Virus record (IMG/VR): IMGVR_UViG_2874920711_000010
Length of the DNA: 19,564 nt
Reading direction: 5' to 3' (one strand)
From: a virus
Taxonomy: Duplodnaviria > Heunggongvirae > Uroviricota > Caudoviricetes
Part shown: positions 1 through 19,564 of the stretch, in pieces
How the letters are laid out: each line of letters opens with the position of its first letter
Position numbering within the stretch: the stretch's first letter is position 1
The notes under the pieces: model-generated
What the model was told of the DNA's origin: nothing
Database searches by the model: none
Seen by the model: only the letters and a program-made list of their open reading frames with translations
Translations under genes and position numbers: made by a program

Positions 1-107
1 ATGGGCTGCGTCACCATGTTGGTGATTCAGGTGCGCACCTTTCCCCTGTGGGGTAAAAGCTCCAACCGTAACGATGTTCGTTATGGTCAACGGTTAAACC
101 GTCTCTT

Positions 108-144
108 TGTCACTGTGTGTCACTGCTTGTCACTCTCCGTCACG
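108..144. repeat. Four direct GTCAC-containing repeats with exact 10-bp phasing (TGTCACT at 108-114, 118-124, 128-134; GTCAC at 139-143), followed by the near-palindrome TGGTCATTATGACCA (152-166)
   Basis: Read directly from the sequence; helical phasing suggests protein-binding sites. No convincing coding potential in this region. Confidence 0.5.
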
Positions 145-613
145 ATTGGGCGTGGTCATTATGACCATTCCCAAAAACCCCATATTCGTGGTTTTTCTGT
201 GTCGGGGCTATTCTGCTGTTGCCGTGCTGGTGGATATTCTCCGGTATGCGGCTCCCCATATCGGCATCAGGCCCACCAGCGTGAAGCGTTTTTCATTTTT
301 CGCGGGTATAAAAAATCGATGGGGCTAGCAGTCCGGAAGAGGTCAGGGCACAGAGATTTGACCCGCCCCTCCCTGTGCATTAGCACAATAAGTGACCGAA
401 GGCGGAATTCCGCCCTCGGTACTTACATATGAGAAACGATATTTCTTCCACCGATACCCTTTATTTGGGTATCGCGAGTAAGCCCCAAAATCTGGGTGTT
501 ACTCTTACTACCCAAACTACGGGTAGTTTCCGTAGTTTCATAGTCGAGTTGCAGATCTGCAACTCGCCACCAGTTGCTAAGTGCATTTTTGCACTTTCGG
601 TAATATCAACCAG

Positions 614-997
614 TTACCGCCGTAAGTGCTCCGGCTTCCTCCACTGGTAAGTATTTTTCGCGCTCTCCCTCCGTTGTTGAGAACGGCGACGATATGCCAG
701 CAACTCAAGGACTCTTGTTCGTATGTTGCGCATATCCACGCCGTTAAGCTCAATACCGTCACGGCGCATCACCTCAGCCACCACACGCGCGTAATTTTCA
801 GCGGTGACGCTGTCCGGCTGCGTGGCCACCTGTTTGCCTGTTGCCTGACAGATTCCGGTAATACGGAGGATTACTTTCAGTAGTTCGGCGTCGGTCATGG
901 TTATGGTTTCCATAGTGATGGGGAACAATTTCTGTAATCTGCGAAGCTGGCGATCGGTCAGACTCAAATGCCTGGCAACTTCAGTCTGAGTAGCCAC
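614..997 (-). CDS. HTH-domain DNA-binding protein, 127 aa; possible terminase-small-subunit-like or packaging-redirection-like protein
   Basis: ORF with apparent GTG start preceded by GAGGTG; N-terminus EVARHLSLTDRQLRRL looks like a helix-turn-helix. Function not recognised with certainty. Confidence 0.4.
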   Translation of the reverse strand: MATQTEVARHLSLTDRQLRRLQKLFPITMETITMTDAELLKVILRITGICQATGKQVATQPDSVTAENYARVVAEVMRRDGIELNGVDMRNIRTRVLELLAYRRRSQQRRESAKNTYQWRKPEHLRR

Positions 998-1252
998 TGT
1001 TCACCTCGCCCAAAAATCTCCCCTCATGCGTTTTAAACATGCATCTTGCGAACAACTTTATGAAACGCGGCATATATGTCCGGTTTGAGTGTTTAATTTT
1101 TGCGCATGTCCGGTTCGCAGAAAGCGCATTTCTATATTTTTCAAATGGTTAACCTTCAGAGAAACCGGACATGGTTTCCGAAAAATTTTCATAAATAGTG
1201 AAATTCTGCGCCGCTCCCGCCCGTGGCAGGCCACCCCACCGGAAGGACCCGC

Positions 1253-1283
1253 AAAAAAAAGCCGGATTTCTCCGGCCTTTTCT
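1253..1283 (-). terminator. Intrinsic terminator closing the capsid operon
   Basis: A8 run (1253-1260), hairpin GCCGGATTTCTCCGGC (1261-1276), then T-rich; on the minus strand this is a hairpin followed by a U-run, directly after the stop codon at 1283-1285. Confidence 0.7.
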
Positions 1284-1696
1284 CAGATGGTTTTCAGTAT
1301 GCGATCGATTTCGCCGTCATCACCCTGATATCTGCCATCGTATGCCATGCCAGGGCTTACGGCCTGCGGGCTGTGCATGTCCATAAAGTTTTCAAAGGCT
1401 GCGGTAAGCTCCGGCGCAACCTTCGGGCGTTCCTGCTCTATGGTCATGTTCAGGATTTCCCGGGCATTATCGACGCTAATACATGGCACGTTTGCCATTG
1501 CACGTAACAGCGGCTGATAGTCGTCAGATTCATGAAGCGCCATAATCGCATCAGTGCGCGGCTTGTCCTGCTCTTCCAGTTTGTTAAGTTGATATATAGC
1601 CTCGTAGGTTGATAAACCTCTGTCCGCCATTGCCCGCGCTTCGGCTTTAAATTTACTCGCCAGCGGTAGCGCCATGATAGCTTCATTGATTGCCAT
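1283..1696 (-). CDS. Hypothetical protein, about 138 aa, last gene of the capsid operon
   Basis: ORF 1283-1759 trimmed to the Met at 1696 (MAINEAIMAL...), overlapping the upstream gene end by 14 nt and followed by the terminator. No family recognised. Confidence 0.45.
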   Translation of the reverse strand: MAINEAIMALPLASKFKAEARAMADRGLSTYEAIYQLNKLEEQDKPRTDAIMALHESDDYQPLLRAMANVPCISVDNAREILNMTIEQERPKVAPELTAAFENFMDMHSPQAVSPGMAYDGRYQGDDGEIDRILKTI

Positions 1697-2042
1697 CGTT
1701 CCCCTGCTTATCGCACCAGTGGCTGAACGGATACGCCAGAACCCGCAAAAGCGGCGCATTTTTTCGCGTCGGTGTCGACGCTCTCGGCCAGTTAACGGCG
1801 GCGATATTAAATATCCCCGTCTTGTAACACTGTGCTGATTTCTGCTTTGACGTGTCCACGGGGTACGCCGTCAGATAAACAGCCTTGCCAGATTCCTGAC
1901 CATCCCACGCCTTAAACTCGCCATTGTCCGCCAGCATCAGCGGGGTAAATTCCTGAATAACGCCAGCATCAGCGGAAAAATGTACCAGCGTCGTGGCAAC
2001 CTGCTGTGTGCCTGCATATAACTCAACATATGGAGTGCCCAT
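1683..2042 (-). CDS. Head decoration protein, lambda gpD-like, 119 aa
   Basis: Shares TPLML, AWDG, YKxGxF and VxWP motifs with lambda gpD; strong RBS GGGAGA 5 nt upstream of the ATG, immediately after the capsid gene stop. Confidence 0.6.
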   Translation of the reverse strand: MGTPYVELYAGTQQVATTLVHFSADAGVIQEFTPLMLADNGEFKAWDGQESGKAVYLTAYPVDTSKQKSAQCYKTGIFNIAAVNWPRASTPTRKNAPLLRVLAYPFSHWCDKQGNDGNQ

Positions 2043-2053
2043 AGAATCTCCCG

Positions 2054-3109
2054 TTAACCAATTTTCACAGTAACAAATTTGCGGATATCTGCCGGAACCG
2101 GCTGCGGTGCGCTGTGCGTCTGCACGTACTCAATCGCCGGATCGCCGCTCTCAATCCAGTTTTTCGGGTAGTACATGTTTTGCGTTGCGCCCGTTCTTAC
2201 CGCTTCCGGATCCATAATCGCGCCATAGGCCACCAGACCTTTATTGCTGGTGTTGCCCAGGACAAGCAAATCAGGCTCAAGGAAATATTTTTCGGTGCCG
2301 TCGCTGTCGGTGTATTTGCCGGAATAGACGATAAGGGCCAGATCACCCAGATAGCCTTTAAAGCTCACCACTTCGCCCAGGTTTTTACACGCCAGCTCTG
2401 CGGCGGATTCTGAACCACGGGAAAGATCGTACAGCTCGCGGAATTTTTTAAAGCTACGTAAGGTGCGCCATACGTCAGCGCCCATAATCATGACGTTGGC
2501 GGGGCAGCTGGCCTGTTCGGCGTATAGCTCGATGTCATCTGTCGGATCATGCGTCTCTTTATTCTGCTCAGACCATTTTTTTCCTGGCCCCTGATGGACA
2601 ATGCAGTTTGCCGGCATATTCCAGTCGATTTCATAGCGTTCTATGCCTTCGCCTTCAATGATGTTTTTTCCGGTCGTGACCGCATTCACTGCCAGCCATT
2701 CCACACGCGCTTTAATGGCGTTTATCTGGCGGCGCATGTTGCCAGTAATGAGGCGCATACGTCGCCAGGTGGGGTCGTTAAGCAGTGCCGGATCTTCTCC
2801 AGCCATGCGCATGATGGTTTTTGATGGATCGATTTCGTGTTTGGGTTTCATGTAGCCAGGGCGGATAGTGCTTGTTTCGTACCCTTTATCACGCTGAACC
2901 TGGCTACCCACCACAGGCGAACAAAACGCCGACATGGTGACTTCTTCAATGTCCAGGGTATCCAGCATGACATCTTGTGTGTTGAAGGTTGCTACTTTCG
3001 GGAAAAACAGCGTGGTAAACAGCGGACTGAATTTAAATTCCGGGATATCCCCGCGATTCAGGTACGCGAAAAGCTGGTTAGTGTTAAGTGCCGTTGCTTT
3101 GTCTGCCAT
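2054..3109 (-). CDS. Major capsid protein, lambda gpE family, 351 aa
   Basis: Collinear similarity to lambda gpE over the full length: FKFxPLFxxLFF, PGYxKPKHE, DPTDDIE, VYSGxY...LVLGNT, YPKNWxxxGDPA. Start overlaps the upstream stop as TAATG. Confidence 0.85.
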   Translation of the reverse strand: MADKATALNTNQLFAYLNRGDIPEFKFSPLFTTLFFPKVATFNTQDVMLDTLDIEEVTMSAFCSPVVGSQVQRDKGYETSTIRPGYMKPKHEIDPSKTIMRMAGEDPALLNDPTWRRMRLITGNMRRQINAIKARVEWLAVNAVTTGKNIIEGEGIERYEIDWNMPANCIVHQGPGKKWSEQNKETHDPTDDIELYAEQASCPANVMIMGADVWRTLRSFKKFRELYDLSRGSESAAELACKNLGEVVSFKGYLGDLALIVYSGKYTDSDGTEKYFLEPDLLVLGNTSNKGLVAYGAIMDPEAVRTGATQNMYYPKNWIESGDPAIEYVQTHSAPQPVPADIRKFVTVKIG

Positions 3110-3315
3110 TATTCACCCCCATGAGTCTGATTCATGCCAAGCGCCGCACGTAAATAGGCGCGTACCTGCCAGCCTGTTGACGGCTCAACCATCGCCAGCG
3201 GATCAAGTCCTGCCGCAATGCCCGCTTTTACGTTCTGCTGGTGGCGTTCCTTGAGCGCCTCCACGATATCGGGGCTTATGTAAACTGTCACCCCGCCTTT
3301 TTTCTCTTCTGTCAT
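3109..3315 (-). CDS. Small protein, 68 aa, first gene of the capsid operon, translationally coupled to the capsid gene
   Basis: ORF with a GAGG-type RBS, directly downstream of the promoter and palindrome; stop overlaps the capsid gene start. No family recognised. Confidence 0.5.
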   Translation of the reverse strand: MTEEKKGGVTVYISPDIVEALKERHQQNVKAGIAAGLDPLAMVEPSTGWQVRAYLRAALGMNQTHGGE

Positions 3316-3339
3316 AGTCAGAAATTCCTCTTCGACTTA

Positions 3340-3400
3340 AAAAATTATAACTGGATGTACATCCAGTTATAGTTATAATCATAGTTGCATTTTGTGCAAT
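3340..3400 (-). promoter_or_regulatory. Capsid operon promoter (-35 TTGCAC at 3394-3399, 16-bp spacer, -10 TATAAC at 3372-3377) with a perfect 24-bp palindrome ATAACTGGATGTACATCCAGTTAT (3347-3370) over the start-site region
   Basis: Sigma70-like hexamers on the minus strand with correct spacing; the palindrome has a CTG-N10-CAG core, which is LexA-box-like. Confidence 0.5.
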
Positions 3401-3476
3401 AGAATTGAGTTGCGTTGCAAATTATGAAATGATTTACGGCAACAGTAGTCACCATGCTGTTAACCTCGTAAGCAAA

Positions 3477-3516
3477 AGCCCGATAAGCTTCCTCCTGTAC
3501 TTATCGGGCTTTTTTT
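3477..3516 (+). terminator. Intrinsic terminator-like hairpin with a T6 run on the plus strand and no annotated plus-strand gene upstream
   Basis: Stem AGCCCGATAAG / CTTATCGGGCT with a 13-nt loop, followed by TTTTTT (3511-3516). Confidence 0.45.
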
Positions 3517-3522
3517 GGGTAC

Positions 3523-3547
3523 AAAAAGCCGGATTTTCTCCGGCCTG
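3523..3547 (-). terminator. Intrinsic terminator downstream of the ssb remnant; hairpin nearly identical to the one at 1261-1276
   Basis: AAAAA then GCCGGATTTTCTCCGGC (3528-3544); on the minus strand a hairpin plus U-run directly after the ssb stop at 3553. Confidence 0.6.
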
Positions 3548-3552
3548 TGCGT

Positions 3553-3896
3553 TCAGAACGGAATATCATCACCGTAGGGGTCATCGTCTCCCGCTGGTGG
3601 CTGATTACCCTGTGTGCCTGTGGTTTTGCGTCTGTTCCCGCCAGGGCGTGCCGCTCGGGCACTGATTACGCTGTCGGCAATAACCTGATAACCCTGCCGC
3701 GTTTCCCCGTTCTGTCCGGTCCACTGGCTGACCTGCATCGTGCCGGATACGCTGGCAACGTCGCCTGTCCGTCCTGTGCCTGGCTGCATGGCAGCGATAC
3801 CGCCATACGCGCCAGCGTCATCGGTGTGCCCTTGCTGGTCTGTTTTACCTGCGGGTCGTCCACCAACCGTCCGTAAGCTGCTATCTGTGCTGTCAT
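3553..3896 (-). pseudogene. ssb: Single-stranded DNA-binding protein (SSB) gene remnant, frame-disrupted or internally deleted
   Basis: SSB-like N-terminus (MTAQIAAYGRLVDDPQVKQ...) with RBS GGAGAGG in one frame from 3896; SSB-like OB-fold end (SQWTGQNGETRQGYQVIADSV) and acidic tail DDDPYGDDIPF in another frame ending at 3553. The middle of the OB fold appears missing. Confidence 0.5.
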
Positions 3897-4001
3897 GATT
3901 CCACCTCTCCGGTTTTAACGTAAGCGCCCCATCAGCGACGTCTTGTGAAAATTGTCCTGTCTGGCAACAATCGCGCCCATCTATATTGATGGACACGAAC
4001 G

Positions 4002-4676
4002 ATGAATTCCCAGACAACAAAAGATATTCCCTGCTTCCGTTCTTATTTGCCTGATGCCCTGCGTTTAAGATTTGAAGATAAACTGACCATCCGGGCCATC
4101 GCTCAGCGTCTGGGTCTCAGTCATTCCACAATACATACGCTTTTTCAGCGATTTCTTGCATCCGGTATCGCATGGCCATTGCCCGATTCAGTTTCATTCG
4201 CTCAACTTGACGCCATCCTTTATGCCAACAGAAAGAAGGAATTAACAGAGCCTCAAATCAGAGAAGGCTCATGGCGAAAAGAACGGCGAACCAGCTATAG
4301 CCGTGAATTTAAGGTCCGTCTGGCTAAGCAGGCGTTACAGCCTGGGGCTGTTGTTGCCCGGATCGCCAGAGAACACGATATCAATGATAACCTGCTGTTT
4401 AAATGGAAAAGCCAGTACGAGGACGGCTTACTGAGCGATGATGACATACAGGAATGCATGCCTGTCCCGGTGGCACTGACTGATACGCCGGAGCCGACCA
4501 GACCAGTTACAAATCCCTTCTGGCGTAACAAGCATGATGAGCGCCCTGAGGGGGCTCCCGGAAACGTCCCACGGTGCGAGCTGCATCTTAAATCAGGTGT
4601 GGTAAAACTGTTTGACCCTCTCACTCCGGAACTGTTACGGGCGCTAATCCGCGAAATGAAAGGGGGTATCCGATGA
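4002..4676 (+). CDS. IS66-family accessory protein TnpA (HTH), 224 aa
   Basis: First ORF inside the IS66 left end, overlapping tnpB by 4 nt. Confidence 0.7.
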   Translation: MNSQTTKDIPCFRSYLPDALRLRFEDKLTIRAIAQRLGLSHSTIHTLFQRFLASGIAWPLPDSVSFAQLDAILYANRKKELTEPQIREGSWRKERRTSYSREFKVRLAKQALQPGAVVARIAREHDINDNLLFKWKSQYEDGLLSDDDIQECMPVPVALTDTPEPTRPVTNPFWRNKHDERPEGAPGNVPRCELHLKSGVVKLFDPLTPELLRALIREMKGGIR

Positions 4677-5020
4677 TAACGCTGCCGACCGGTACCAGAA
4701 TCTGGATCATCGCTGGCATCACAGATATGCGTTGTGGCTTCAATGGCCTGGCTTCGAAGGTGCAGAACACGCTGAAAGATGACCCGTTCTCCGGGCATAT
4801 CTTCGTCTTCCGGGGCCGCAGTGGCAAAATGGTGAAAATACTGTGGGCCGATCGTGACGGGTTATGCCTGTTCGCCAAACGCCTGGAACGGGGCCGCTTC
4901 GTCTGGCCGGTGACCCGGGAAGGGAAAGTGCACCTGACGCCAGCTCAGTTATCCATGCTACTGGAGGGGATCGCGTGGCAACATCCCAAACGGACAGAAC
5001 GGCCTGGCATCCGGATATAA
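4673..5020 (+). CDS. IS66-family TnpB (Orf2), 115 aa
   Basis: Characteristic small IS66 second ORF (MITLPTG...IWIIAGITDMRCGFNGL), translationally coupled to tnpA. Confidence 0.85.
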   Translation: MITLPTGTRIWIIAGITDMRCGFNGLASKVQNTLKDDPFSGHIFVFRGRSGKMVKILWADRDGLCLFAKRLERGRFVWPVTREGKVHLTPAQLSMLLEGIAWQHPKRTERPGIRI

Positions 5021-5039
5021 CCCGTGATAAAACAAGGGA

Positions 5040-6595
5040 ATGAACAATGAACTCCCCGATGATATTGAGCTGCTTAAAGCCATGTTGCGTAAGCAACAGA
5101 GTCGGCTTCGACAGTATGCCTGTCAGGTCGCGGGCTATGAGCAGGAAATTGAACGGCTGAAAGCGCAACTCGACAGGTTGCGTCGTATGTTGTTCGGCCA
5201 GAGTTCAGAGAAAAAGCGTCATAAGCTTGAAAATCAGATCCGACAGGCAGAAAAACGACTGTCGGAACTGGAAAACCGGCTGAACACAGCCAGAAATCTT
5301 CTGGAAGATGCATCGTCAGTCACAGATTCACCTGACACCAGTCCCCGTCAGAAAACCCGATCGCCAGTAAGCCTGAATCCCCGGGAGACACATCGCCTTC
5401 TGCCTGCTGAAACCAGTTGCCCGGCCTGTGGAGGTGTTCTGAAAGAAATGGGGGAAACAATCTCAGAGCAACTGGATATCATTAATACCGCCTTTAAAGT
5501 TATCGAAACCATACGTCCCAAACTGGCCTGTAGCCGGTGTGATGTCATCGTTCAGGCACCACTTCCCCTAAACCGATCGAACGCGGTTATGCCAGTGCAG
5601 GGTTACTTGCACGGATCCTGGTCAGCAAATATATGGAACATATCCCTTTATATCGCCAGTCAGAAATATACGCGCGACAGGGCGTGGAGCTGAGCCGTAA
5701 TACCATGGTGCGCTGGGTATCAGAAATGGCAGACAAACTCCGTCCTCTGTATATAGCGCTGAATGACTATGTTCTGGAGGCAGGAAAGGTGCACGCAGAT
5801 GACACTCCGGTGAAAGTACTGGCCCCGGGGAACGGAAAGACGAAAACGGGTCGTCTGTGGGTATACGTCAGGGATGATCGTAATGCGGGTTCATCCCTGC
5901 CGGCAGCCGTCTGGTTCGCGTATTCGGCAGATCGCAAAGGAGAACATCCGCAGCTCCACCTGGCAAAGTATCAGGGCGTACTGCAGGCTGATGCCTATGC
6001 AGGTTATAACGTACTGTACGAAACGGGCCGGGTGAAGGAAGCCGGGTGCCTGGCCCACGCCCGCCGAAAAATCCATGACGAGGATGTGCGCCGTCCGACA
6101 GAAATGACTCAGGAAGCGCTCAGACGGATAGCAGAGTTATACGACATAGAAGCGGAGATACGTGGCAGTCCGGCAGAGGAACGGCTTGCAGTCAGAAAAG
6201 CCAGAAGCGTCCAGTTGATGCAGTCGTTGTACGACTGGATACAGTTGCAGAGGAAAACGCTGTCGAAACATGCGGAGATGGCGAAGGCGTTCGACTATAT
6301 CCTGAATCACTGGAATGCGCTGAACGAGTTCTGTCGTGACGGCTGGGTGGAAATAGACAACAACATCGGTGAAAACGCGTTACGATCGGTGGCGGTTGGA
6401 AGAAAAAATTATCTCTTTTTCGGCTCAGACAAGGGAGGAGAAAGTGCGGCGATCATCTACAGTCTGCTGGTCACCTGCAAACAGAACGAAGTGGAGCCGG
6501 AGGACTGGTTGCGCGAAGTGATCGAGAAGCTCAATGACTGGCCGTCGAACCAAGTGCATGAACTGCTGCCCTGGAACTTCTCGTCTGTAAAATAA
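5040..6595 (+). CDS. IS66-family transposase TnpC, split by an apparent frameshift near 5565-5568 (C4 run)
   Basis: ORFs 5040-5693 and 5633-6595 together make a TnpC of about 517 aa; the conserved [29 protein letters not shown] block is only in frame if one base is restored in the C-run. Confidence 0.75.
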
Positions 6596-6640
6596 TCCTT
6601 ACGCTACGTACTTCTCGGGACGCTTACGTATATTAAGTTA

Positions 6641-6799
6641 GGTAGACAGCTTTTTTTACTGTCTACCCACTATCTACCCTCTCTACCTGATTTTACCTGA
6701 ATCAGACAGGGAGGTAGACACGGGGTAGATAGTGGATAAAAGCACTCTACCCCGCTGAAAGCCGCGCCATTACTGGCATGAGGGCCAGCAAGGTAGACA
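6641..6799. repeat. Iteron cluster: octamer GGTAGACA/TGTCTACC at 6641-6648, 6660-6667, 6713-6720, 6792-6799, plus degenerate copies at 6671-6678 and 6724-6731
   Basis: Exact 8-mers in both orientations within about 160 bp of the 367-bp spacer between the two IS66 copies. Confidence 0.6.
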
Positions 6800-6847
6800 A
6801 GGGGAGGCACAACTCAAAACTTTTTAAACGAGGGGGTAAAAATAAAC

Positions 6848-6994
6848 ATGCACACTTCAGGAAAATTTAATAAATCACTCAAAAAACGCAGAGACAGAAC
6901 AGAACCGAAATATCGCGCGTTAGACATGACAGAGCACGCTTTAAAGGTGGCAATCAGAACGATAGACCGCCACGCGGGGGAAGGATACGCGAAG
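6848..6994 (+). CDS. 5-prime fragment (49 codons) of a small gene truncated at the IS66 copy 2 end
   Basis: ORF 6848-7090 starts after a GAGGGGG RBS; from 6995 onward its frame is IS66 sequence. Confidence 0.25.
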
Positions 6995-7025
6995 GTAAGC
7001 GCCCGAGAAGTACGTAGCGTAAGGA

Positions 7026-8580
7026 TTATTTTACAGACGAGAAGTTCCAGGGCAGCAGTTCATGCACTTGGTTCGACGGCCAGTCATTGAGCTTCTCGAT
7101 CACTTCGCGCAACCAGTCCTCCGGCTCCACTTCGTTCTGTTTGCAGGTGACCAGCAGACTGTAGATGATCGCCGCACTTTCTCCTCCCTTGTCTGAGCCG
7201 AAAAAGAGATAATTTTTTCTTCCAACCGCCACCGATCGTAACGCGTTTTCACCGATGTTGTTGTCTATTTCCACCCAGCCGTCACGACAGAACTCGTTCA
7301 GCGCATTCCAGTGATTCAGGATATAGTCGAACGCCTTCGCCATCTCCGCATGTTTCGACAGCGTTTTCCTCTGCAACTGTATCCAGTCGTACAACGACTG
7401 CATCAACTGGACGCTTCTGGCTTTTCTGACTGCAAGCCGTTCCTCTGCCGGACTGCCACGTATCTCCGCTTCTATGTCGTATAACTCTGCTATCCGTCTG
7501 AGCGCTTCCTGAGTCATTTCTGTCGGACGGCGCACATCCTCGTCATGGATTTTTCGGCGGGCGTGGGCCAGGCACCCGGCTTCCTTCACCCGGCCCGTTT
7601 CGTACAGTACGTTATAACCTGCATAGGCATCAGCCTGCAGTACGCCCTGATACTTTGCCAGGTGGAGCTGCGGATGTTCTCCTTTGCGATCTGCCGAATA
7701 CGCGAACCAGACGGCTGCCGGCAGGGATGAACCCGCATTACGATCATCCCTGACGTATACCCACAGACGACCCGTTTTCGTCTTTCCGTTCCCGGGGCCA
7801 GTACTTTCACCGGAGTGTCATCTGCGTGCACCTTTCCTGCCTCCAGAACATAGTCATTCAGCGCTATATACAGAGGACGGAGTTTGTCTGCCATTTCTGA
7901 TACCCAGCGCACCATGGTATTACGGCTCAGCTCCACGCCCTGTCGCGCGTATATTTCTGACTGGCGATATAAAGGGATATGTTCCATATATTTGCTGACC
8001 AGGATCCGTGCAAGTAACCCTGCACTGGCATAACCGCGTTCGATCGGTTTAGGGGAAGTGGTGCCTGAACGATGACATCACACCGGCTACAGGCCAGTTT
8101 GGGACGTATGGTTTCGATAACTTTAAAGGCGGTATTAATGATATCCAGTTGCTCTGAGATTGTTTCCCCCATTTCTTTCAGAACACCTCCACAGGCCGGG
8201 CAACTGGTTTCAGCAGGCAGAAGGCGATGTGTCTCCCGGGGATTCAGGCTTACTGGCGATCGGGTTTTCTGACGGGGACTGGTGTCAGGTGAATCTGTGA
8301 CTGACGATGCATCTTCCAGAAGATTTCTGGCTGTGTTCAGCCGGTTTTCCAGTTCCGACAGTCGTTTTTCTGCCTGTCGGATCTGATTTTCAAGCTTATG
8401 ACGCTTTTTCTCTGAACTCTGGCCGAACAACATACGACGCAACCTGTCGAGTTGCGCTTTCAGCCGTTCAATTTCCTGCTCATAGCCCGCGACCTGACAG
8501 GCATACTGTCGAAGCCGACTCTGTTGCTTACGCAACATGGCTTTAAGCAGCTCAATATCATCGGGGAGTTCATTGTTCAT
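7026..8580 (-). pseudogene. IS66-family transposase TnpC, copy 2, with the shared frameshift plus a second 1-bp deletion (7801-7803)
   Basis: Three ORF pieces (7927-8580, 7586-7987, 7026-7589); copy 2 reads GGCCCCGGG where copy 1 reads GGCCCCGGGG. Confidence 0.7.
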
Positions 8581-8599
8581 TCCCTTGTTTTATCACGGG

Positions 8600-8947
8600 T
8601 TATATCCGGATGCCAGGCCGTTCTGTCCGTTTGGGATGTTGCCACGCGATCCCCTCCAGTAGCATGGATAACTGAGCTGGCGTCAGGTGCACTTTCCCTT
8701 CCCGGGTCACCGGCCAGACGAAGCGGCCCCGTTCCAGGCGTTTGGCGAACAGGCATAACCCGTCACGATCGGCCCACAGTATTTTCACCATTTTGCCACT
8801 GCGGCCCCGGAAGACGAAGATATGCCCGGAGAACGGGTCATCTTTCAGCGTGTTCTGCACCTTCGAAGCCAGGCCATTGAAGCCACAACGCATATCTGTG
8901 ATGCCAGCGATGATCCAGATTCTGGTACCGGTCGGCAGCGTTATCAT
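8600..8947 (-). CDS. IS66-family TnpB, copy 2
   Basis: Protein identical to 4673-5020. Confidence 0.85.
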   Translation of the reverse strand: MITLPTGTRIWIIAGITDMRCGFNGLASKVQNTLKDDPFSGHIFVFRGRSGKMVKILWADRDGLCLFAKRLERGRFVWPVTREGKVHLTPAQLSMLLEGIAWQHPKRTERPGIRI

Positions 8948-9618
8948 CGGATACCCCCTTTCATTTCGCGGATTAGCGCCCGTAACAGTTCCGGAGTGAG
9001 AGGGTCAAACAGTTTTACCACACCTGATTTAAGATGCAGCTCGCACCGTGGGACGTTTCCGGGAGCCCCCTCAGGGCGCTCATCATGCTTGTTACGCCAG
9101 AAGGGATTTGTAACTGGTCTGGTCGGCTCCGGCGTATCAGTCAGTGCCACCGGGACAGGCATGCATTCCTGTATGTCATCATCGCTCAGTAAGCCGTCCT
9201 CGTACTGGCTTTTCCATTTAAACAGCAGGTTATCATTGATATCGTGTTCTCTGGCGATCCGGGCAACAACAGCCCCAGGCTGTAACGCCTGCTTAGCCAG
9301 ACGGACCTTAAATTCACGGCTATAGCTGGTTCGCCGTTCTTTTCGCCATGAGCCTTCTCTGATTTGAGGCTCTGTTAATTCCTTCTTTCTGTTGGCATAA
9401 AGGATGGCGTCAAGTTGAGCGAATGAAACTGAATCGGGCAATGGCCATGCGATACCGGATGCAAGAAATCGCTGAAAAAGCGTATGTATTGTGGAATGAC
9501 TGAGACCCAGACGCTGAGCGATGGCCCGGATGGTCAGTTTATCTTCAAATCTTAAACGCAGGGCATCAGGCAAATAAGAACGGAAGCAGGGAATATCTTT
9601 TGTTGTCTGGGAATTCAT
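8944..9618 (-). CDS. IS66-family TnpA, copy 2
   Basis: Protein identical to 4002-4676. Confidence 0.7.
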   Translation of the reverse strand: MNSQTTKDIPCFRSYLPDALRLRFEDKLTIRAIAQRLGLSHSTIHTLFQRFLASGIAWPLPDSVSFAQLDAILYANRKKELTEPQIREGSWRKERRTSYSREFKVRLAKQALQPGAVVARIAREHDINDNLLFKWKSQYEDGLLSDDDIQECMPVPVALTDTPEPTRPVTNPFWRNKHDERPEGAPGNVPRCELHLKSGVVKLFDPLTPELLRALIREMKGGIR

Positions 9619-9735
9619 CGTTCGTGTCCATCAATATAGATGGGCGCGATTGTTGCCAGACAGGACAATTTTCACAAGACGTCGCTGATGGGGCGCTTAC
9701 TAATATACTGAATTAAATGTATTTTCCTTTACTCA

Positions 9736-9752
9736 GGTAGACAGGGTAGACA
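9736..9752. repeat. Tandem iterons GGTAGACA-G-GGTAGACA directly downstream of the replicase gene
   Basis: Two exact copies of the same octamer found in 6641-6799, lying between the IS66 copy 2 end (9700) and the rep stop (9767). Confidence 0.6.
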
Positions 9753-9766
9753 GCAATTACAAAAAA

Positions 9767-10999
9767 TTATAAAAACGCGTCGCACTCGTCTGTTGTTATT
9801 GCGTTAGTCTGCGTTACCCCCTTAACTTTCCGCGTAATATATTCATGTCCGTAAACTTTTGCGGCAGGCTTCATAGCCTTGCCAAAGTCATTTACGTTTA
9901 GCGGTTTGCTCCTGCCTGCGTATGCCATAAACGCCAGATAGACGCGGTAAAGGCTGTTCCTGGTCGTGTACTTCACTGAATCACCACCGCCACCCATCAT
10001 CAGGCCGCGCGCTTCCTCCAGAAAATTCAGGAACTGGCAAAACTCAATAACCGGATCCGTCTGTTGCTTTATTGCCAGTGCTTCATCACCGTCACGCTGT
10101 TCCAGTAGTAAAGCCCGTGCCTTCTCAGGGTCGGTAAAGTTCGCCAGCAATCGGCGGATAATAACGGGGATTTCAGCCGCAATCTTTTCCGGTAGCTCCC
10201 TGTCTTTTTCGGCCTCACTGACGATATTGTCGAAACGGAAAATCACGCGACGACGTGCCACACCTCCGGCCCGTTCGGTGAATATCATCGGGTTGTTGTC
10301 GGTCGCCAGCACCACCGCCCTGATTACCGCCGTGAAACGCTTTTCATATTTCGGGTTAATTTCCACGGGGTCGCCGCCCGTGATTTTCTTGATGCCCGTT
10401 CCTTCGCCTGTATATTTCGGCTGGTCAGCCAGGACGATAAGACGACTCCCGACAACCTGCGCACGTCCACCAGCATCATCAAGCGATGTCATTTCAGCGC
10501 TTACCGTGTTCTGTTTCCCTGCCAGAAGGCTGGCTATGTGTGTGAATGTACTTTTACCGCTCCCGCCGTCTCCGGTGGCCTCAATAAACATCTGCCAGTC
10601 GTACCGGTTCGCCATAATCATGTAAAGCGCGGCACATATGCGCATCATCTTGCGCGGGTCTTTTCCGGCTGCGTGATCAAGCCATTTATGAAAGTTTGGC
10701 GCGTTGTCGCGGATATTCTCCCCTGGTGCTGGTGGCGTGTACTCAATGCCGTTGTGCGTGGTGATCCAGTTCTCCGGCGTGTGCGGGGAAAATTCCCCCG
10801 TTTTCAGGTTAAGCACACCATTAGTGAACGGTAGCAAATCACTGGACGGCTCGCCCATCGGGTCAGCAGTAACTTTTAACGCTTCAACGGCGTTATTAAT
10901 TGCCCGCTTGCTGAATGTGGCCCGTGTTCTGAATAAACCGCCACCATTTCGCGGCTCAGTTCCATTGTGCTGACCGGACACCATATCCCGCCGCGCCAT
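9767..10999 (-). CDS. Replicase/helicase of the P4 alpha C-terminal type (D5_N-like region plus P-loop NTPase), up to 410 aa
   Basis: LPFTNGVLNLKTGEF motif and Walker A ATGDGGSGKST; true start may be the internal Met at 10858 (after the upstream stop) or the gene may be fused to 10876-11520 by a frameshift. Confidence 0.8.
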   Translation of the reverse strand: MARRDMVSGQHNGTEPRNGGGLFRTRATFSKRAINNAVEALKVTADPMGEPSSDLLPFTNGVLNLKTGEFSPHTPENWITTHNGIEYTPPAPGENIRDNAPNFHKWLDHAAGKDPRKMMRICAALYMIMANRYDWQMFIEATGDGGSGKSTFTHIASLLAGKQNTVSAEMTSLDDAGGRAQVVGSRLIVLADQPKYTGEGTGIKKITGGDPVEINPKYEKRFTAVIRAVVLATDNNPMIFTERAGGVARRRVIFRFDNIVSEAEKDRELPEKIAAEIPVIIRRLLANFTDPEKARALLLEQRDGDEALAIKQQTDPVIEFCQFLNFLEEARGLMMGGGGDSVKYTTRNSLYRVYLAFMAYAGRSKPLNVNDFGKAMKPAAKVYGHEYITRKVKGVTQTNAITTDECDAFL

Positions 11000-11520
11000 A
11001 CGTGAACGATTTCACTTTCCGGATGCACACAAACGCCATCAAATCGACCAGCAAGCATCTGTGCGCGCTCACTGTCTGCCATCTGCGAAAGTTGCGCCTT
11101 TTGCTTTACCGGAAGCTCAATGACCAGACCATCAGAAAGATTCTGGCGTTCACGGGCCAGATATTCGCGCCAGTTCTGCACCTCCTGGCCGTGCATACCC
11201 TCAAGATAAAAATTTGCATCTTGTACACCTGCCGCCGCCAGCTTCTGACCAATCGCCTTGATCATTACAGGCTCAAGATGTCCGGCTCTGTATATGCGTG
11301 CTGATTTTCTGCCATCCGGCACAATTTGCAGATTATCCAGTTCGGATAGCTGCTGCTCTCCAAGCCACACAGGAGGCTCATTATCTCCGGCTGTACGCGC
11401 GTCATGTTCCTGCCACTGTTTCGCGTGTGCCCAGGCATCACTACCCGCAAAGATAATTACCTCTGTGTCTTTGTGTTTTATTCCGCGTGGCTGTTTTTTT
11501 ACGTTCGGTGCCAGTTTCAT
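10876..11520 (-). CDS. Primase-like or replication-associated protein, 214 aa, upstream partner of the replicase
   Basis: ORF overlaps the replicase ORF by 124 nt in another frame; domain not recognised with certainty. Confidence 0.5.
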   Translation of the reverse strand: MKLAPNVKKQPRGIKHKDTEVIIFAGSDAWAHAKQWQEHDARTAGDNEPPVWLGEQQLSELDNLQIVPDGRKSARIYRAGHLEPVMIKAIGQKLAAAGVQDANFYLEGMHGQEVQNWREYLARERQNLSDGLVIELPVKQKAQLSQMADSERAQMLAGRFDGVCVHPESEIVHVWRGGIWCPVSTMELSREMVAVYSEHGPHSASGQLITPLKR

Positions 11521-11801
11521 TTTTTACCCCTGAATACGTTAAGCATCTTTTTTATTTCCTGAATATTGGCACGTGCTTTCTCCCTGCTGGTGGGCACGTT
11601 ACGCGGTACGGCCTGCACAAGAGAAAAATCACGGTCGAACTGATAAACAGGCATCACGCAATCATATTCGTAGCCTTCACGACGGTAGGTTACGCGCCGT
11701 TCCTCCACGCCCTTAATTATTACCGTGCTGCCGTACTTATCGCGGTAAATATTGAGGTAGCCTGAGTTTAACGGACACTCCTTCCTGAAATAGAATGGCA
11801 T
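11517..11801 (-). CDS. Small hypothetical protein coupled to the primase gene (ATGA overlap); its first codons lie inside the IS3-family element
   Basis: Stop overlaps the primase start at 11517-11520; the annotated start at 11801 is beyond the inferred IS left end (about 11763-11779), so the native N-terminus and promoter are probably lost. Confidence 0.35.
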   Translation of the reverse strand: MPFYFRKECPLNSGYLNIYRDKYGSTVIIKGVEERRVTYRREGYEYDCVMPVYQFDRDFSLVQAVPRNVPTSREKARANIQEIKKMLNVFRGKK

Positions 11802-11816
11802 CAGAAGGAGCTAATA

Positions 11817-12079
11817 ATGAGCAGAAAAACCCAACGTTACTCTAAAGAGTTCAAAGCCGAAGCTGTCAGAACGGTTCTTGAAAATCAACTTTCGATCAGT
11901 GAAGGCGCTTCCCGATTATCCCTTCCTGAAGGCACTTTAGGACAATGGGTTACCGCCGCCAGAAAAGGACTCGGTACTCCTGGTTCCCGCACGGTGGCTG
12001 AACTGGAATCTGAAATTCTGCAACTGCGTAAGGCGTTAAATGAAGCTCGCCTTGAGCGAGATATATTAAAAAAAGCAAC
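11817..12079 (+). CDS. IS3-family OrfA (HTH), interrupted near its 3-prime end by IS30; the last codons resume at 13302
   Basis: Removing IS30 and one AC copy restores ...DILKKATAYFAQESLKNTR and a continuous -1 frame into OrfB. Confidence 0.7.
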
Positions 12080-13299
12080 TGTAGATTCAATTGGTCAACG
12101 CAACAGTTATGTGAAAACATGGGGTTGCGGAGGTTTTTTGAATGAGACGAACATTTACAGCAGAGGAAAAAGCCTCTGTTTTTGAACTATGGAAGAACGG
12201 AACAGGCTTCAGTGAAATAGCGAATATCCTGGGTTCAAAACCCGGAACGATCTTCACTATGTTAAGGGATACTGGCGGCATAAAACCCCATGAGCGTAAG
12301 CGGGCTGTAGCTCACCTGACACTGTCTGAGCGCGAGGAGATACGAGCTGGTTTGTCAGCCAAAATGAGCATTCGTGCGATAGCTACTGCGCTGAATCGCA
12401 GTCCTTCGACGATCTCACGTGAAGTTCAGCGTAATCGGGCAGACGCTATTACAAAGCTGTTGATGCTAATAACCGAGCCAACAGAATGGCGAAAAGGCCA
12501 AAACCGTGCTTACTGGATCAAAATTTACCATTGCGAAAGCTTGTTCTGGAAAAGCTGGAGATGAAATGGTCTCCAGAGCAAATATCAGGATGGTTAAGGC
12601 GAACAAAACCACGTCAAAAAACGCTGCGAATATCACCTGAGACAATTTATAAAACGCTGTACTTTCGTAGCCGTGAAGCGCTACACCACCTGAATATACA
12701 GCATCTGCGACGGTCGCATAGCCTTCGCCATGGCAGGCGTCATACCCGCAAAGGCGAAAGAGGTACGATTAACATAGTGAACGGAACACCAATTCACGAA
12801 CGTTCCCGAAATATCGATAACAGACGCTCTCTGGGGCATTGGGAGGGCGATTTAGTCTCAGGTACAAAAAACTCTCATATAGCCACACTTGTAGACCGAA
12901 AATCACGTTATACGATCATCCTTAGACTCAGGGGCAAAGATTCTGTCTCAGTAAATCAGGCTCTTACCGACAAATTCCTGAGTTTACCGTCAGAACTCAG
13001 AAAATCACTGACATGGGACAGAGGAATGGAACTGGCCAGACATCTAGAATTTACTGTCAGCACCGGCGTTAAAGTTTACTTCTGCGATCCTCAGAGTCCT
13101 TGGCAGCGGGGAACAAATGAGAACACAAATGGGCTAATTCGGCAGTACTTTCCTAAAAAGACATGTCTTGCCCAATATACTCAACATGAACTAGATCTGG
13201 TTGCTGCTCAGCTAAACAACAGACCGAGAAAGACACTGAAGTTCAAAACACCGAAAGAGATAATTGAAAGGGGTGTTGCATTGACAGATTGAATCTACA
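12080..13299 (+). mobile_element. IS30 (1220 bp here, canonical 1221 bp) nested inside the IS3-family element, with 2-bp target duplication AC
   Basis: Left end TGTAGATTCAATTGGTCAACGCAACAG at 12080, right end ...CAGATTGAATCTACA at 13299, AC at 12078-12079 and 13300-13301. Confidence 0.85.
12142..13292 (+). CDS. insI: IS30 transposase, split by a 1-bp deletion in a G-run at about 12436-12439
   Basis: ORFs 12142-12564 and 12486-13292 together give the roughly 383-aa IS30 transposase; the window reads CGGGCAGACGC where an intact frame requires one more G. Confidence 0.8.
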
Positions 13300-13376
13300 A
13301 CAGCGTATTTTGCACAGGAGTCGCTGAAAAATACGCGTTAATCGAACAATGGCGACAACAATTTCCCATTGAAGCG

Positions 13377-14195
13377 ATGTGTCAGGTATTTGGTGTATCC
13401 AGGAGCGGTTATTACAACTGGGTACAGCATGAACCCTCAGACAGAAAACAAAGTGATGAGCGGCTAAAACTGGAGATTAAGGTGGCCCATATCCGCACTC
13501 GCGAAACATATGGAACCCGGCGGCTCCAGACGGAGCTGGCAGAGAATGGCATCATCGTTGGACGTGACCGACTGGCACGTCTTCGTAAGGAGCTAAGGCT
13601 ACGCTGTAAGCAGAAACGCAAGTTCAGAGCGACTACGAACCCGAACCACAATCTGCCAGTTGCGCCAAATCTGCTGAACCAGACGTTCGCTCCTACAGCA
13701 CCAAATCAGGTCTGGGTGGCGGACCTGACGTATGTTGCCACACAGGAGGGATGGTTGTACCTCGCTGGCATCAAAGATGTTTATACGTGCGAAATTGTCG
13801 GCTACGCCATGGGAGAGCGCATGACAAAAGAGCTGACAGGTAAAGCCCTGTTTATGGCGCTCAGGAGCCAGCGCCCACCTGCCGGGCTAATCCACCACTC
13901 TGATCGAGGTTCACAGTACTGCGCATACGATTACCGGGTCATACAGGAGCAGTTTGGTCTGAAAACATCAATGTCGCGTAAAGGTAACAGTTACGACAAC
14001 GCTCCGATGGAAAGCTTCTGGGGAACGCTGAAAAATGAGAGCCTGAGCCACTATCGTTTTAATAACCGGGATGAAGCCATCTCAGTAATACGGGAATACA
14101 TTGAGATTTTCTACAATCGTCAGCGTCGTCACTCTCGTCTGGGGAATATCTCCCCGGCAGCCTTCAGGGAAAAATATCATCAGATGGCTGCTTAA
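13377..14195 (+). CDS. IS3-family OrfB (DDE transposase catalytic domain)
   Basis: DDE-type motifs (WVADLTY, HHSDRGSQY, YDNAPMESFW); in the intact element it is expressed as an OrfAB fusion by -1 frameshifting, the -1 frame being open from about 13302. Confidence 0.8.
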   Translation: MCQVFGVSRSGYYNWVQHEPSDRKQSDERLKLEIKVAHIRTRETYGTRRLQTELAENGIIVGRDRLARLRKELRLRCKQKRKFRATTNPNHNLPVAPNLLNQTFAPTAPNQVWVADLTYVATQEGWLYLAGIKDVYTCEIVGYAMGERMTKELTGKALFMALRSQRPPAGLIHHSDRGSQYCAYDYRVIQEQFGLKTSMSRKGNSYDNAPMESFWGTLKNESLSHYRFNNRDEAISVIREYIEIFYNRQRRHSRLGNISPAAFREKYHQMAA

Positions 14196-14310
14196 AAAAA
14201 GAACAAATGGTAGTGTCCGCTATTGCCAGTACACCTCATATCCCCGCGCATGAATTTAGTGCGAGTTTTGCCGCTGGCAGTTAAGCCAGGATATTTAAGT
14301 TTCATTATTT

Positions 14311-14544
14311 TTATTCTCCGGTGTGGGGCGCTTTATACTGGTCGTGTAATGTCTCTATTTCCTGCAACTCATTTATTACAGGCTCAAGAAGCGTTATTAA
14401 TGCCGTGACAATCCTTGATTTCTGTTTATCACGCTCATTATCGCCAAATGTTTCCAGACACATTTGCAATATTTCCAACATATTTTCACTGTGAGAAAGT
14501 GCAAGAAATGCGCGGTCTGTTATTTCAATGTAAATATCACGCAT
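14311..14544 (-). CDS. Small hypothetical protein, 77 aa, in an AT-rich pocket between the IS3 and IS110 elements
   Basis: ORF only; no clear RBS, and its upstream region is IS110-family sequence. Confidence 0.3.
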   Translation of the reverse strand: MRDIYIEITDRAFLALSHSENMLEILQMCLETFGDNERDKQKSRIVTALITLLEPVINELQEIETLHDQYKAPHTGE

Positions 14545-17980: not shown

Positions 17981-18187
17981 TTAAGCAGCCGTTCCGCGTG
18001 CTTCCTGTTCGCGTTCTTTCTGCCAGGCCAACACATCATCCTCATACCATCCGCGACGGCGTAAACCAACGCGAAAACCCTGCGGAAATTCTCCGGCGTT
18101 GATCATGCTTTGCAGCGTGCTGTCTGCCTTGATGTGGATAATTTTTTTTACTTCCTGGCGAAAGATAATTTTTCTGATTGCTTCCAT
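17981..18187 (-). CDS. alpA: AlpA-family phage transcriptional regulator, 68 aa
   Basis: Size and motif pattern (RQEVxK...STLxxMIxAGEFPxGxxxGxRxxGWxExDVxAW) typical of AlpA in P4-like/PICI islands; position next to the integrase. Confidence 0.75.
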   Translation of the reverse strand: MEAIRKIIFRQEVKKIIHIKADSTLQSMINAGEFPQGFRVGLRRRGWYEDDVLAWQKEREQEARGTAA

Positions 18188-18661: not shown

Positions 18662-19564
18662 CTACACGGCTCGGATACCCCTTTTACCACTGGCGAGGGT
18701 TACGCCCGTCGCCGCAGCCTCGACAAATTCGCCCCACCAGCGCATCAGCACGATGCGTTTTTCTATGTAGTTGCTCCGGTTGTATGCCCGTCTAACTTCG
18801 TTGGTGTCGACGTGGGCAAGTGCCGCCTCTATTACGTCCGGCTCGAATCCTTCCTCGTTCGCTGCTGTGCTGAATATGGCGCGTAATCCATGAGACACCA
18901 GCACGCCAGCGAATCCCATACGCCGCAATGCTGCGTTAGCGGTCTGGCTGTTCATCGGCTGCTGTGGGTCTTTCAGACTTGGGAAAACGTAATTGCGGTG
19001 GTGGCTGATTGGTTTCATGGCCTCCAGCATCGCCATAGCCTGACCGGAAAGCGGGATAACGTGATCCCTGCGCATCTTCATGCGTCCGGCAGGTATCGTC
19101 CATTGCTTCGCGTCCAGGTTGATTTCATCCCACCGCGTTGATGACGCTTCGGCGGGACGGGTTACGGTCAGTAACTGCCATTCAATCAGTAATCTGGTCT
19201 GCCGTTCTGTTGCCGATACTGATAAAGCCTGCATAAGCTCCGGCAGCTGTTCGGGGCGGATTGTTGGCATATGTTTTTTTACAGGTGAGGGAAACGCCTT
19301 ACGCACATTCATAGCCGGATTGGCATCAATCAGCCCACTGTTGGCGGCGTAATCCATTACCTCATTAACGCGCTGTAAAACCCGCTTGAGTGTTTCCAGG
19401 TTGCCGCGCTCCTTGATGGGTGTAAGCACCTCAACGAACCTTCGGGCGGTGAGGGTATCTATTGGCGTGTTGCCGATGAACGGGAATACATATTTATCCA
19501 GCGAACGCCAGATATCTTTAATCGTGTTGGGGCCAGATTCTGGCTGATTTTCACCTGGTACCAT
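18662..19564 (-). CDS. int: P4-type tyrosine integrase, C-terminal 300 aa; the gene probably continues beyond the window edge
   Basis: Catalytic-domain motifs HGLRA and RAYNRSNY near the C-terminus; similar to P4/CP4-57-type integrases but lacking the N-terminal arm-binding domain. Confidence 0.85.
   Translation of the reverse strand: MVPGENQPESGPNTIKDIWRSLDKYVFPFIGNTPIDTLTARRFVEVLTPIKERGNLETLKRVLQRVNEVMDYAANSGLIDANPAMNVRKAFPSPVKKHMPTIRPEQLPELMQALSVSATERQTRLLIEWQLLTVTRPAEASSTRWDEINLDAKQWTIPAGRMKMRRDHVIPLSGQAMAMLEAMKPISHHRNYVFPSLKDPQQPMNSQTANAALRRMGFAGVLVSHGLRAIFSTAANEEGFEPDVIEAALAHVDTNEVRRAYNRSNYIEKRIVLMRWWGEFVEAAATGVTLASGKRGIRAV

Follow-up and report, generated by a model that had tools for sequence, protein, structure and literature searches.

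A four-gene capsid block in IMGVR_UViG_2874920711_000010 as the late module of an EcCICFT073-type satellite, with a putative scaffold protein of its own

Why does about one in ten Escherichia coli genomes (598 of 5426 complete genomes carry the DNA in question, at 80-95% identity) keep a seemingly unneeded phage coat gene within a satellite element, as do 21 of the 29 reference Gram-negative phage-inducible chromosomal islands (PICIs), in which this major capsid gene is dispensable for transfer (PMC10111431)? The same puzzle has been raised in a review (PMC6893505), and no paper was found in the literature that assigns the block of genes around this coat gene a function. It is posed anew by a stretch of 19,564 nucleotides from the virus record IMGVR_UViG_2874920711_000010 (the window, in what follows, means this whole stretch), for which the original prediction had described a self-contained capsid operon next to a satellite-type backbone. 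With high confidence, the block represents the late ("capsid") module that is conserved in classical Gram-negative PICIs of the EcCICFT073 type, placed between the replication genes (primase and single-stranded DNA-binding protein, SSB) and the cos/packaging-specificity region. It is an already known part of PICIs, the window holding a further copy and no new kind of element, and since the module is textbook PICI anatomy, another copy as such changes nothing. The question of why it is kept is narrowed by a Nu3-type scaffold encoded beside the E (coat) and D (decoration) genes, by an old, separate clade of the satellite proteins and by purifying selection, which together lead to the testable proposal that these genes supply a shell kit. 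What is added here is the scaffold homology of the fourth protein, p138, a hint of a ribbon-helix-helix (RHH) fold in the first, p68, the position of the cos site, the satellite E/D clade, the selection acting on it, and a reading of the frameshifts in the window. Weighing the identity of the block together with the far more tentative mechanism set out below, we regard the explanation as a whole as somewhat probable.

By the open reading frames (ORFs) of the window, the block consists of four tightly packed genes on the minus strand (1283-3315), closed by a terminator:

3109-3315, minus strand: p68, the first gene, 68 aa, phrog_3255, possible RHH DNA-binding protein
2054-3109, minus strand: coat gene, 351 aa, major capsid protein of the lambda gpE family, orthologue of EcCICFT073 c1499
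1708-2042, minus strand: decoration gene, lambda gpD family, orthologue of c1500; the ORF is frameshifted in the window and runs to 1683
1283-1696, minus strand: p138, 137 aa, scaffold-like protein
1253-1276, minus strand: intrinsic terminator right after the last stop codon, a GCCGGA-GAAA-TCCGGC hairpin (1261-1276) followed by T8 (1253-1260)

The TAA stop of p68 overlaps the ATG of the coat gene as TAATG, whereby p68 is translationally coupled to the coat gene, and an 11-nt spacer containing GGGAG separates the latter from the decoration start at 2042. The terminator is also conserved in the relative from E. coli O121 and in CFT073. Sequence and profile matches thus bear out the four genes, the gpE-like coat, the gpD-like decoration protein and the downstream terminator as they had been predicted, and no portal, protease or terminase was found among the genes of the window. 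Two details require correction: the gene of the supposed 138-aa protein is real, its product having 137 residues, and the statement that a scaffold is missing is inaccurate because the fourth protein is scaffold-like. The order E before D is indeed not lambdoid, given that lambda and two helper prophages share the order C/Nu3-D-E. None of the four proteins matched any NCBIfam family or any defence-system model of PADLOC, and Rfam gave no family match in positions 1-4100 of the window.

EcCICFT073, the prototype Gram-negative PICI, was described by Fillol-Salom et al. in 2018 with c1499 as a putative capsid and c1500 as a head decoration gene (PMC6092414), and the novelty implied for the block in the window, which corresponds to c1499/c1500, falls away with it. 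In CFT073 the block lies near phoQ at positions 5463-7497 of its stretch, after genes for a DUF4222 protein, primase, SSB and PerC, and is followed on its 3' side by the cos site, a 144-aa Nu1-like helix-turn-helix (HTH) protein and a 93-aa gene. The gene order is the same as in the window, with protein identities of 93% (p68), 90% (coat) and 88% (p138), and the upstream region, the terminator followed by cos, and the position after pri-ssb all recur. The window differs in its cosN variant, in the lack of rppA after cos and of PerC upstream, in being riddled with insertion sequences (IS), and in a decoration gene that is 1 nt shorter by deletion. If the numbers run on without a gap, the 137-aa gene is probably c1501.

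In E. coli, the best matches reach ≈ 91-94%, and a megablast search of 50,697 phage records found the module DNA in none. A synteny survey covered 80 IMG/VR loci with coat proteins 89-100% identical, and all 80 follow one order: integrase, primase/repA, ssb, p68, E, D, p138, then a gene for a Nu1-like small terminase (TerS), for RppA or for neither, and finally the 93-aa gene. A large terminase gene is present in none of the 80 loci, and a portal or protease gene accompanies the module in only two of them, where the satellite sits embedded in the portal gene of a helper. With 10-12 kb, the relatives have roughly one fourth the length of a lambdoid genome. All contexts inspected are PICIs, integrated at tRNA-Pro/yejM, at phoQ-roxA, in helper prophages, or forming a Pluralibacter island. 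In E. coli CFIAFB20180511 the PICI with the module (stretches 1-23502 and 1-13601) sits among the late genes of an Stx2-encoding prophage, and in Edwardsiella tarda (789-12893) it interrupts the portal gene of a lambda-like prophage. The homologues in the 80 loci are therefore not always enclosed in complete lambdoid head-gene clusters; every syntenic copy that was inspected stands in a PICI backbone, with lambdoid phages as helpers, which sustains the prediction of a satellite module as opposed to a decayed lambdoid head region. As to the two helpers themselves, the prophage of CFIAFB20180511 combines lambda-type head genes (S49 protease, D, E, FI) with P2-type contractile tail genes, and the Edwardsiella PICI carries p68, coat and decoration genes, with no p138, its helper's D and then E following 3 kb downstream.

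The coat protein matches Pfam PF03864 (Phage_cap_E) over residues 26-349 with E = 1.5e-48 and 166 bits (cut-off 22.9), and phrog_29 with E = 2e-104. Among structures, it retrieves PDB 3BQW, the crystal structure of the c1499 capsid deposited as "putative capsid protein of prophage", with E = 2e-217, and lambda gpE with E = 1.5e-82. Its best match among the 50,697 phage records is only 46.5% identical. The satellite E proteins of E. coli and Edwardsiella share 63-90% identity with one another, in contrast to 43-46% with E of lambda and of their own helpers. The decoration protein behaves alike: it matches PF02924 (HDPD; E = 2.6e-13, 50.6 bits, cut-off 29.1) and phrog_49 (E = 5e-20), the intact 111-aa version shares 37% identity with lambda gpD, and the satellite D proteins are 51-92% identical among themselves but 34-41% identical to helper D. 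By these sequence comparisons, satellite E and D each form a clade of their own, old and apart from the helper proteins. Compared with the lambda head genes C/Nu3, D and E, the block has the protein families in common (coat ≈ 43-46%, decoration ≈ 35-37% identical), including the Nu3 repeat motif and C-terminal layout in p138, whereas its order is reversed (E, D, scaffold), a protease domain is missing, and W, B, FI, FII, Nu1 and A are absent.

For p138 the original prediction had guessed at a scaffold, and this guess is borne out by sequence matches. In phrog_53 ("head maturation protease"), the C-terminal positions 452-566 align with p138 at E = 9e-10. The protein further aligns with residues 412-525 of the 538-aa S49 protease of a helper, a gpC orthologue that is 54% identical to lambda gpC and whose p138-aligned part is the Nu3 portion (BLASTP E = 1e-5; hhalign probability 93%, E = 2.7e-7; Smith-Waterman score 85 against 30 ± 5.5 for shuffles). 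Finally, an exhaustive search of 1.84 billion representatives returned a tiny family with one distant relative only, the 195-aa Nu3-type protein P0073 (E = 7.7e-5). The direct match to lambda Nu3 is weak, direct BLASTP against lambda gpC and FI gave nothing significant, a sequence search of the PDB found no relative, and Foldseek of the p138 model against the PDB gave no match with E < 1. The sequence holds two copies of the repeat "IMAL..(A/E)..R.MA..P.(I/M)(S/T)V..A..(I/L)L", known from the C-terminal part of Nu3/gpC, along with an FxxFM..HS motif and an acidic disordered stretch, and AlphaFold models it as all-alpha (1-103), disordered (104-127) and again helical (128-136). The profile and repeat matches make p138 homologous to the scaffold domain of Nu3/gpC, and a helical body, a disordered linker and a C-terminal helix, as predicted, fit the role of a putative internal scaffold. 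Natural variants of 93 aa (P0027, P0029, P0031) lack exactly one internal Nu3-type repeat, consistent with recombination between the repeats, and the fourth gene of the CFIAFB20180511 PICI encodes a variant of 115 aa. The source annotation of some p138 homologues as "phage head-tail connector protein" has no support, in that NCBIfam matched no family. In Pluralibacter, neither of the two proteins encoded after D (77 and 139 aa) proved equivalent to p138, and the longer one is RppA-like.

The genes of the block are under purifying selection, as judged from their substitution ratios: nonsynonymous to synonymous rates (dN/dS) amount to 0.09-0.18 for the coat gene and 0.10-0.25 for the decoration gene (diverged pairs), with 0.15-0.4 for p68 and 0.2-0.35 for p138. 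The ORFs are intact in 80 (coat, 351 aa), 79 (p68), 77 (decoration) and 69 (p138) of the 80 loci. In the window itself, the decoration ORF comprises 119 aa and overlaps the next gene, for the sole reason that one base is missing near 1785-1788 (CCC to CC), which puts the ≈ 25 C-terminal residues out of frame; the deletion is seen in alignments to E. coli O121 and to the contig IMGVR_UViG_2531839178_000022. Relatives, including O121 and this IMG/VR contig (99.9% identical), have an intact 111-aa decoration gene followed by a 12-nt gap. The contig shows zero mismatches and three 1-nt gaps to the module, and all indels relative to the window (99.7-99.9% identity) are 1-nt contractions of G, C or A homopolymers in the latter:

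919, 1219, 1700, 1785, 5342, 5564, 5842, 10920 and 12436: homopolymer indels of the window relative to IMGVR_UViG_2531839178_000022

These contractions shift the frames of the decoration, IS66 transposase and primase genes, and since they are all of this one type, the frameshifts are probably sequencing errors, with a systematic look, rather than decay. The idea of a decayed copy was dropped on these grounds. The SSB gene (3553-4020, minus strand) is likewise split across two frames, into ORFs of 76 and 155 aa; here the region is identical in the window and the contig, so that this frameshift is presumably shared and may be real.

Directly 3' of the operon terminator follows the cos site of the satellite:

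1161-1250, minus strand: lambdoid cos site, with cosQ-like GGGTCCTTCCGG (1250-1239), cosN-like GGGCGGGAGCGG (1222-1211), then TTTCACTATTTATGAAAATTTTTC

It aligns to the CFT073 cos sequence, which matches the left end of lambda. In its right half it shares 88.7% identity with the cos region of the Escherichia phages PhiR12_1 to PhiR12_5, in its left half 92-94% with mEp460 and phi458, and by this similarity the PhiR12 phages are candidate helpers for the cos type of the window. The cosN-like GGGCGGGAGCGG is unlike the GGGCGGCGACCT of lambda. In the E. coli O121 relative a second cos-like sequence (14210-14400) lies between SSB and p68, bracketing the module between two such sites, and EcCICFT073 has likewise been reported to have two; the window, compared at 3460-3560, has only the downstream one.

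Upstream of p68, the original prediction had placed the operon's own promoter and operator, at 3340-3400. Two features can be read there:

3372-3399, minus strand: promoter-like element, TTGCAC (3399-3394), 16-nt spacer, TATAAC (3377-3372), as read from the sequence
3339-3371, minus strand: 26-nt palindrome TATAACTGGATGTACATCCAGTTATA (3371-3346) and T-run (3344-3339), between the -10 element and the ribosome-binding site

The ≈ 120-bp region 5' of p68 is conserved in E. coli and Pluralibacter alleles and partly in Edwardsiella; TTGCA and TGATTA.AA. are invariant in nine alleles from these three genera, and most relatives have TATAAT in place of TATAAC. A scan with the sigma-70 consensus did not call the element as a promoter. 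The outer T-A pair of the palindrome is C-G in other alleles, and the core AACTGGA..TCCAGTT is retained in Pluralibacter. As RNA, it folds into a leader hairpin with a U-run (-16.5 kcal/mol, z = -3.5), which is strong in the E. coli alleles, shifted in Pluralibacter and not predicted in Edwardsiella. The palindrome is thus either an operator or a leader hairpin/attenuator; promoter-like element and palindrome do exist as foreseen, and the assignment as promoter and operator lacks the scan call, with an attenuator as the alternative for the palindrome. The adjacent p68, present in all 80 loci and found also in Salmonella, Pluralibacter and Edwardsiella, matches phrog_3255 (E = 1e-36) and, faintly, RHH_1 (residues 9-23, E = 0.21). 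Its AlphaFold model has a beta-alpha-alpha topology (predicted local distance difference test score, pLDDT, 77.5), Foldseek of this model against the PDB gave no match with E < 1, and direct BLASTP against lambda W gave nothing significant. From profile and model, p68 may be an RHH protein, plausibly an autoregulator on the neighboring palindrome; the original suggestion of a scaffold or size-determination factor suits it less well than that of a small RHH regulator, a preference that itself rests on weak evidence.

How might these parts work together? Induction by a lambdoid helper would start transcription at the operon's own promoter, and p68 would act at the palindrome. Coat, decoration and scaffold-like proteins would be adapted to one another and make up a shell kit, built on the helper portal; the helper gpC protease would mature the satellite shells, and the helper terminase would fill them at the satellite cos just downstream. 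As the outcome, the satellite would gain its own shell supply or a distinct shell type. It can be rationalized that three structural proteins that diverged together, as a set, from the helper versions and were maintained most likely work together, and the single scattering of satellite proteins into helper shells is less likely. With own-promoter transcription and p68 at the palindrome included, this shell-kit mechanism is put forward tentatively, its chances falling clearly short of even.

Published genetics weighs against it. Deletion of c1499 or of c1500 left transfer by the resident helper unchanged, lambda and phi80 transfer c1499::cat islands, and transfer persists with c1501::tetA islands, even with c1499 deleted in addition; when lambda was the helper, the packaged DNA was of phage size throughout and capsid size did not change, and neither the c1499 nor the c1500 deletion relieved interference with lambda (PMC6092414). 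Interference and the redirection of packaging have been assigned to RppA, c1503 (PMC6739421). On the side of the sequence, the palindrome could act as an RNA hairpin/attenuator instead, the RHH assignment of p68 is weak (E = 0.21, no fold match), and the modules of Edwardsiella and Pluralibacter lack p138, from which it follows that the core conserved across genera is p68-coat-decoration. Helper-driven induction, excision and high-frequency transfer have been reported for EcCICFT073 only (PMC6092414). The null phenotypes imply that a shell-kit role can be spared when lambda, phi80 or CFT073 prophage 4 serves as helper.

An extension of the shell-kit proposal would make the classical PICIs that bear the block an intermediate class between head-stealing and capsid-forming PICIs, in which natural helpers give rise to satellite-specific, possibly smaller capsids. 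Such islands would supply the shell only (coat, decoration and Nu3-like scaffold) and depend on a lambdoid helper for portal, protease, terminase and tail. The idea is rather doubtful at present; if true, it would explain why selection is strongly purifying even though knock-outs tested with lambda, phi80 or the CFT073 helper had no phenotype. The capsid-forming PICIs (EcCIEDL933; Alqurainy et al., bioRxiv 10.1101/2022.09.08.507074) are likewise int-alpA-rep satellites with a coat gene of their own, and they are distinguished by portal, protease, head-tail connectors and small and large terminase, none of which was found in the window; the block is confined to coat, decoration and scaffold-like protein.

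Next to the shell-kit proposal, the explanation that survives best, albeit an unlikely one, is a hijack of capsid assembly, in which the satellite coat, the Nu3-like protein or both would join the assembly pathway of the helper and, with particular natural helpers, redirect it to small capsids or poison it, as SaPIbov5 Ccm or SaPI1 CpmB do. SaPIbov5 Ccm and SaPI1 CpmA/CpmB are likewise satellite homologues of helper coat and scaffold proteins; p138 resembles the C-terminal region of a helper scaffold just as CpmB resembles the 80alpha scaffold (PMC6893505), and the short length of the relatives (10-12 kb) likewise speaks for it. Another Gram-negative PICI with a coat-protein homologue, PmCI172 of Pasteurella, does make small capsids, though its helper is Mu-like and the likeness to the block is one of description only (PMC6092414). 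The staphylococcal proteins, on the other hand, redirect capsid size and have no sequence relationship to those of the block, whereas EcCICFT073 left the size of lambda capsids unchanged, and its interference with lambda persisted in the c1499 and c1500 deletions. Deletion of rppA alone restores the plating of lambda almost fully (PMC6739421), and the joint presence of coat, own D and own scaffold exceeds what a mechanism of the Ccm type needs.

A back-up coat gene, which would replace or supplement the late genes of a helper whose head genes the satellite interrupts, was raised as an idea in PMC10111431, with the E gene as the commonest integration target, and helper-embedded PICIs with the module do exist in CFIAFB20180511 and Edwardsiella tarda. 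It is nevertheless quite improbable: most copies reside at chromosomal sites such as tRNA-Pro/yejM and phoQ-roxA, the Edwardsiella copy interrupts the portal gene and not E, and an identity of 45% to helper E makes a simple substitution doubtful. Marginally less credible still is a functionless relic of captured phage late genes that merely hitch-hikes with the island. The lack of a phenotype in any published knock-out and the frameshifted D gene of the window would speak for it; dN/dS values of ≈ 0.1-0.2 for E and D at a dS of up to ≈ 1, intact E, p68 and D ORFs in 77-80 of the 80 loci, and the conservation of gene order and upstream region across genera speak against it, and the frameshift is one of the many homopolymer contractions that are absent from the 99.9% identical contig.

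The two weakest explanations merit next to no credence. A decayed lambdoid prophage head fragment joined to the satellite by an IS66 rearrangement might be suspected from the two IS66 copies adjoining the module in the window, and is refuted by synteny, as IS66-free relatives keep both the ssb-p68 and the p138-cos junctions, the order is E-D-scaffold and not scaffold-D-E, and the module DNA occurs in none of the 50,697 phage records. An encapsulin-like cellular compartment, which the original prediction had entertained because the coat is encoded without portal or terminase in the same element, founders on a coat whose sole Pfam match is Phage_cap_E, on a neighborhood that holds the gpD homologue, the Nu3-like protein and cos, with no cargo enzyme, on an encapsulin survey that took 3BQW as phage-capsid reference and not as encapsulin, and on a 2025 preprint that found no encapsulin domains in PICI coat proteins.

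As for the remainder of the window, the backbone of integrase, AlpA-like, Ash-domain, DUF4222, D5-type primase and SSB genes bears out the int, alpA and primase parts of the predicted satellite-type int-alpA-pri-rep-ori arrangement, with the reservation that it is interrupted by IS elements (IS110, IS3-family and two inverted IS66 copies). The following features complete the picture:

18662-19564, minus strand: tyrosine integrase, cut by the window end; PF00589 at 4e-29, Phage_int_M at 1.7e-21
17981-18187, minus strand: AlpA-type regulator; phrog_66 at 5e-7 and phrog_2790 at 3e-6 ("excisionase and transcriptional regulator")
9767-11520: primase, D5_N/DUF5906/Pox_D5, split into two ORFs
614-997, minus strand: ORF of 127 aa, residues 34-127 being the 93-aa PICI protein (phrog_1561)

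The AlpA-type gene falls below the cut-off of Pfam AlpA (E = 0.0035), and the split of the primase may be due to the homopolymer error at 10920. No gene for RppA or a Nu1-like TerS follows cos in the window, in contrast to 55 of the 80 relatives (35 with Nu1-like TerS, 20 with RppA). Residues 2-25 of the ORF at 614-997 match the N-terminus of phrog_7289 and resemble an HTH, and the gene looks like a fusion remnant; a sequence search of the PDB returned neither a relative of it nor an Rpp structure. Many relatives encode a 180-aa protein after cos (in two loci at 10281-10823), the C-terminal half of which is collinear with lambda Nu1 while the N-terminus differs, so that it could, by sequence, be a TerS with altered DNA specificity. 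The IS66 copies at 4002-6595 (plus strand) and 7026-9618 (minus strand) flank an ori-side piece of ≈ 370 bp (6628-6995), inverted relative to E. coli PICIs; IMGVR_UViG_2531839178_000022 has a single IS66 copy, and either assembly may be collapsed or rearranged.

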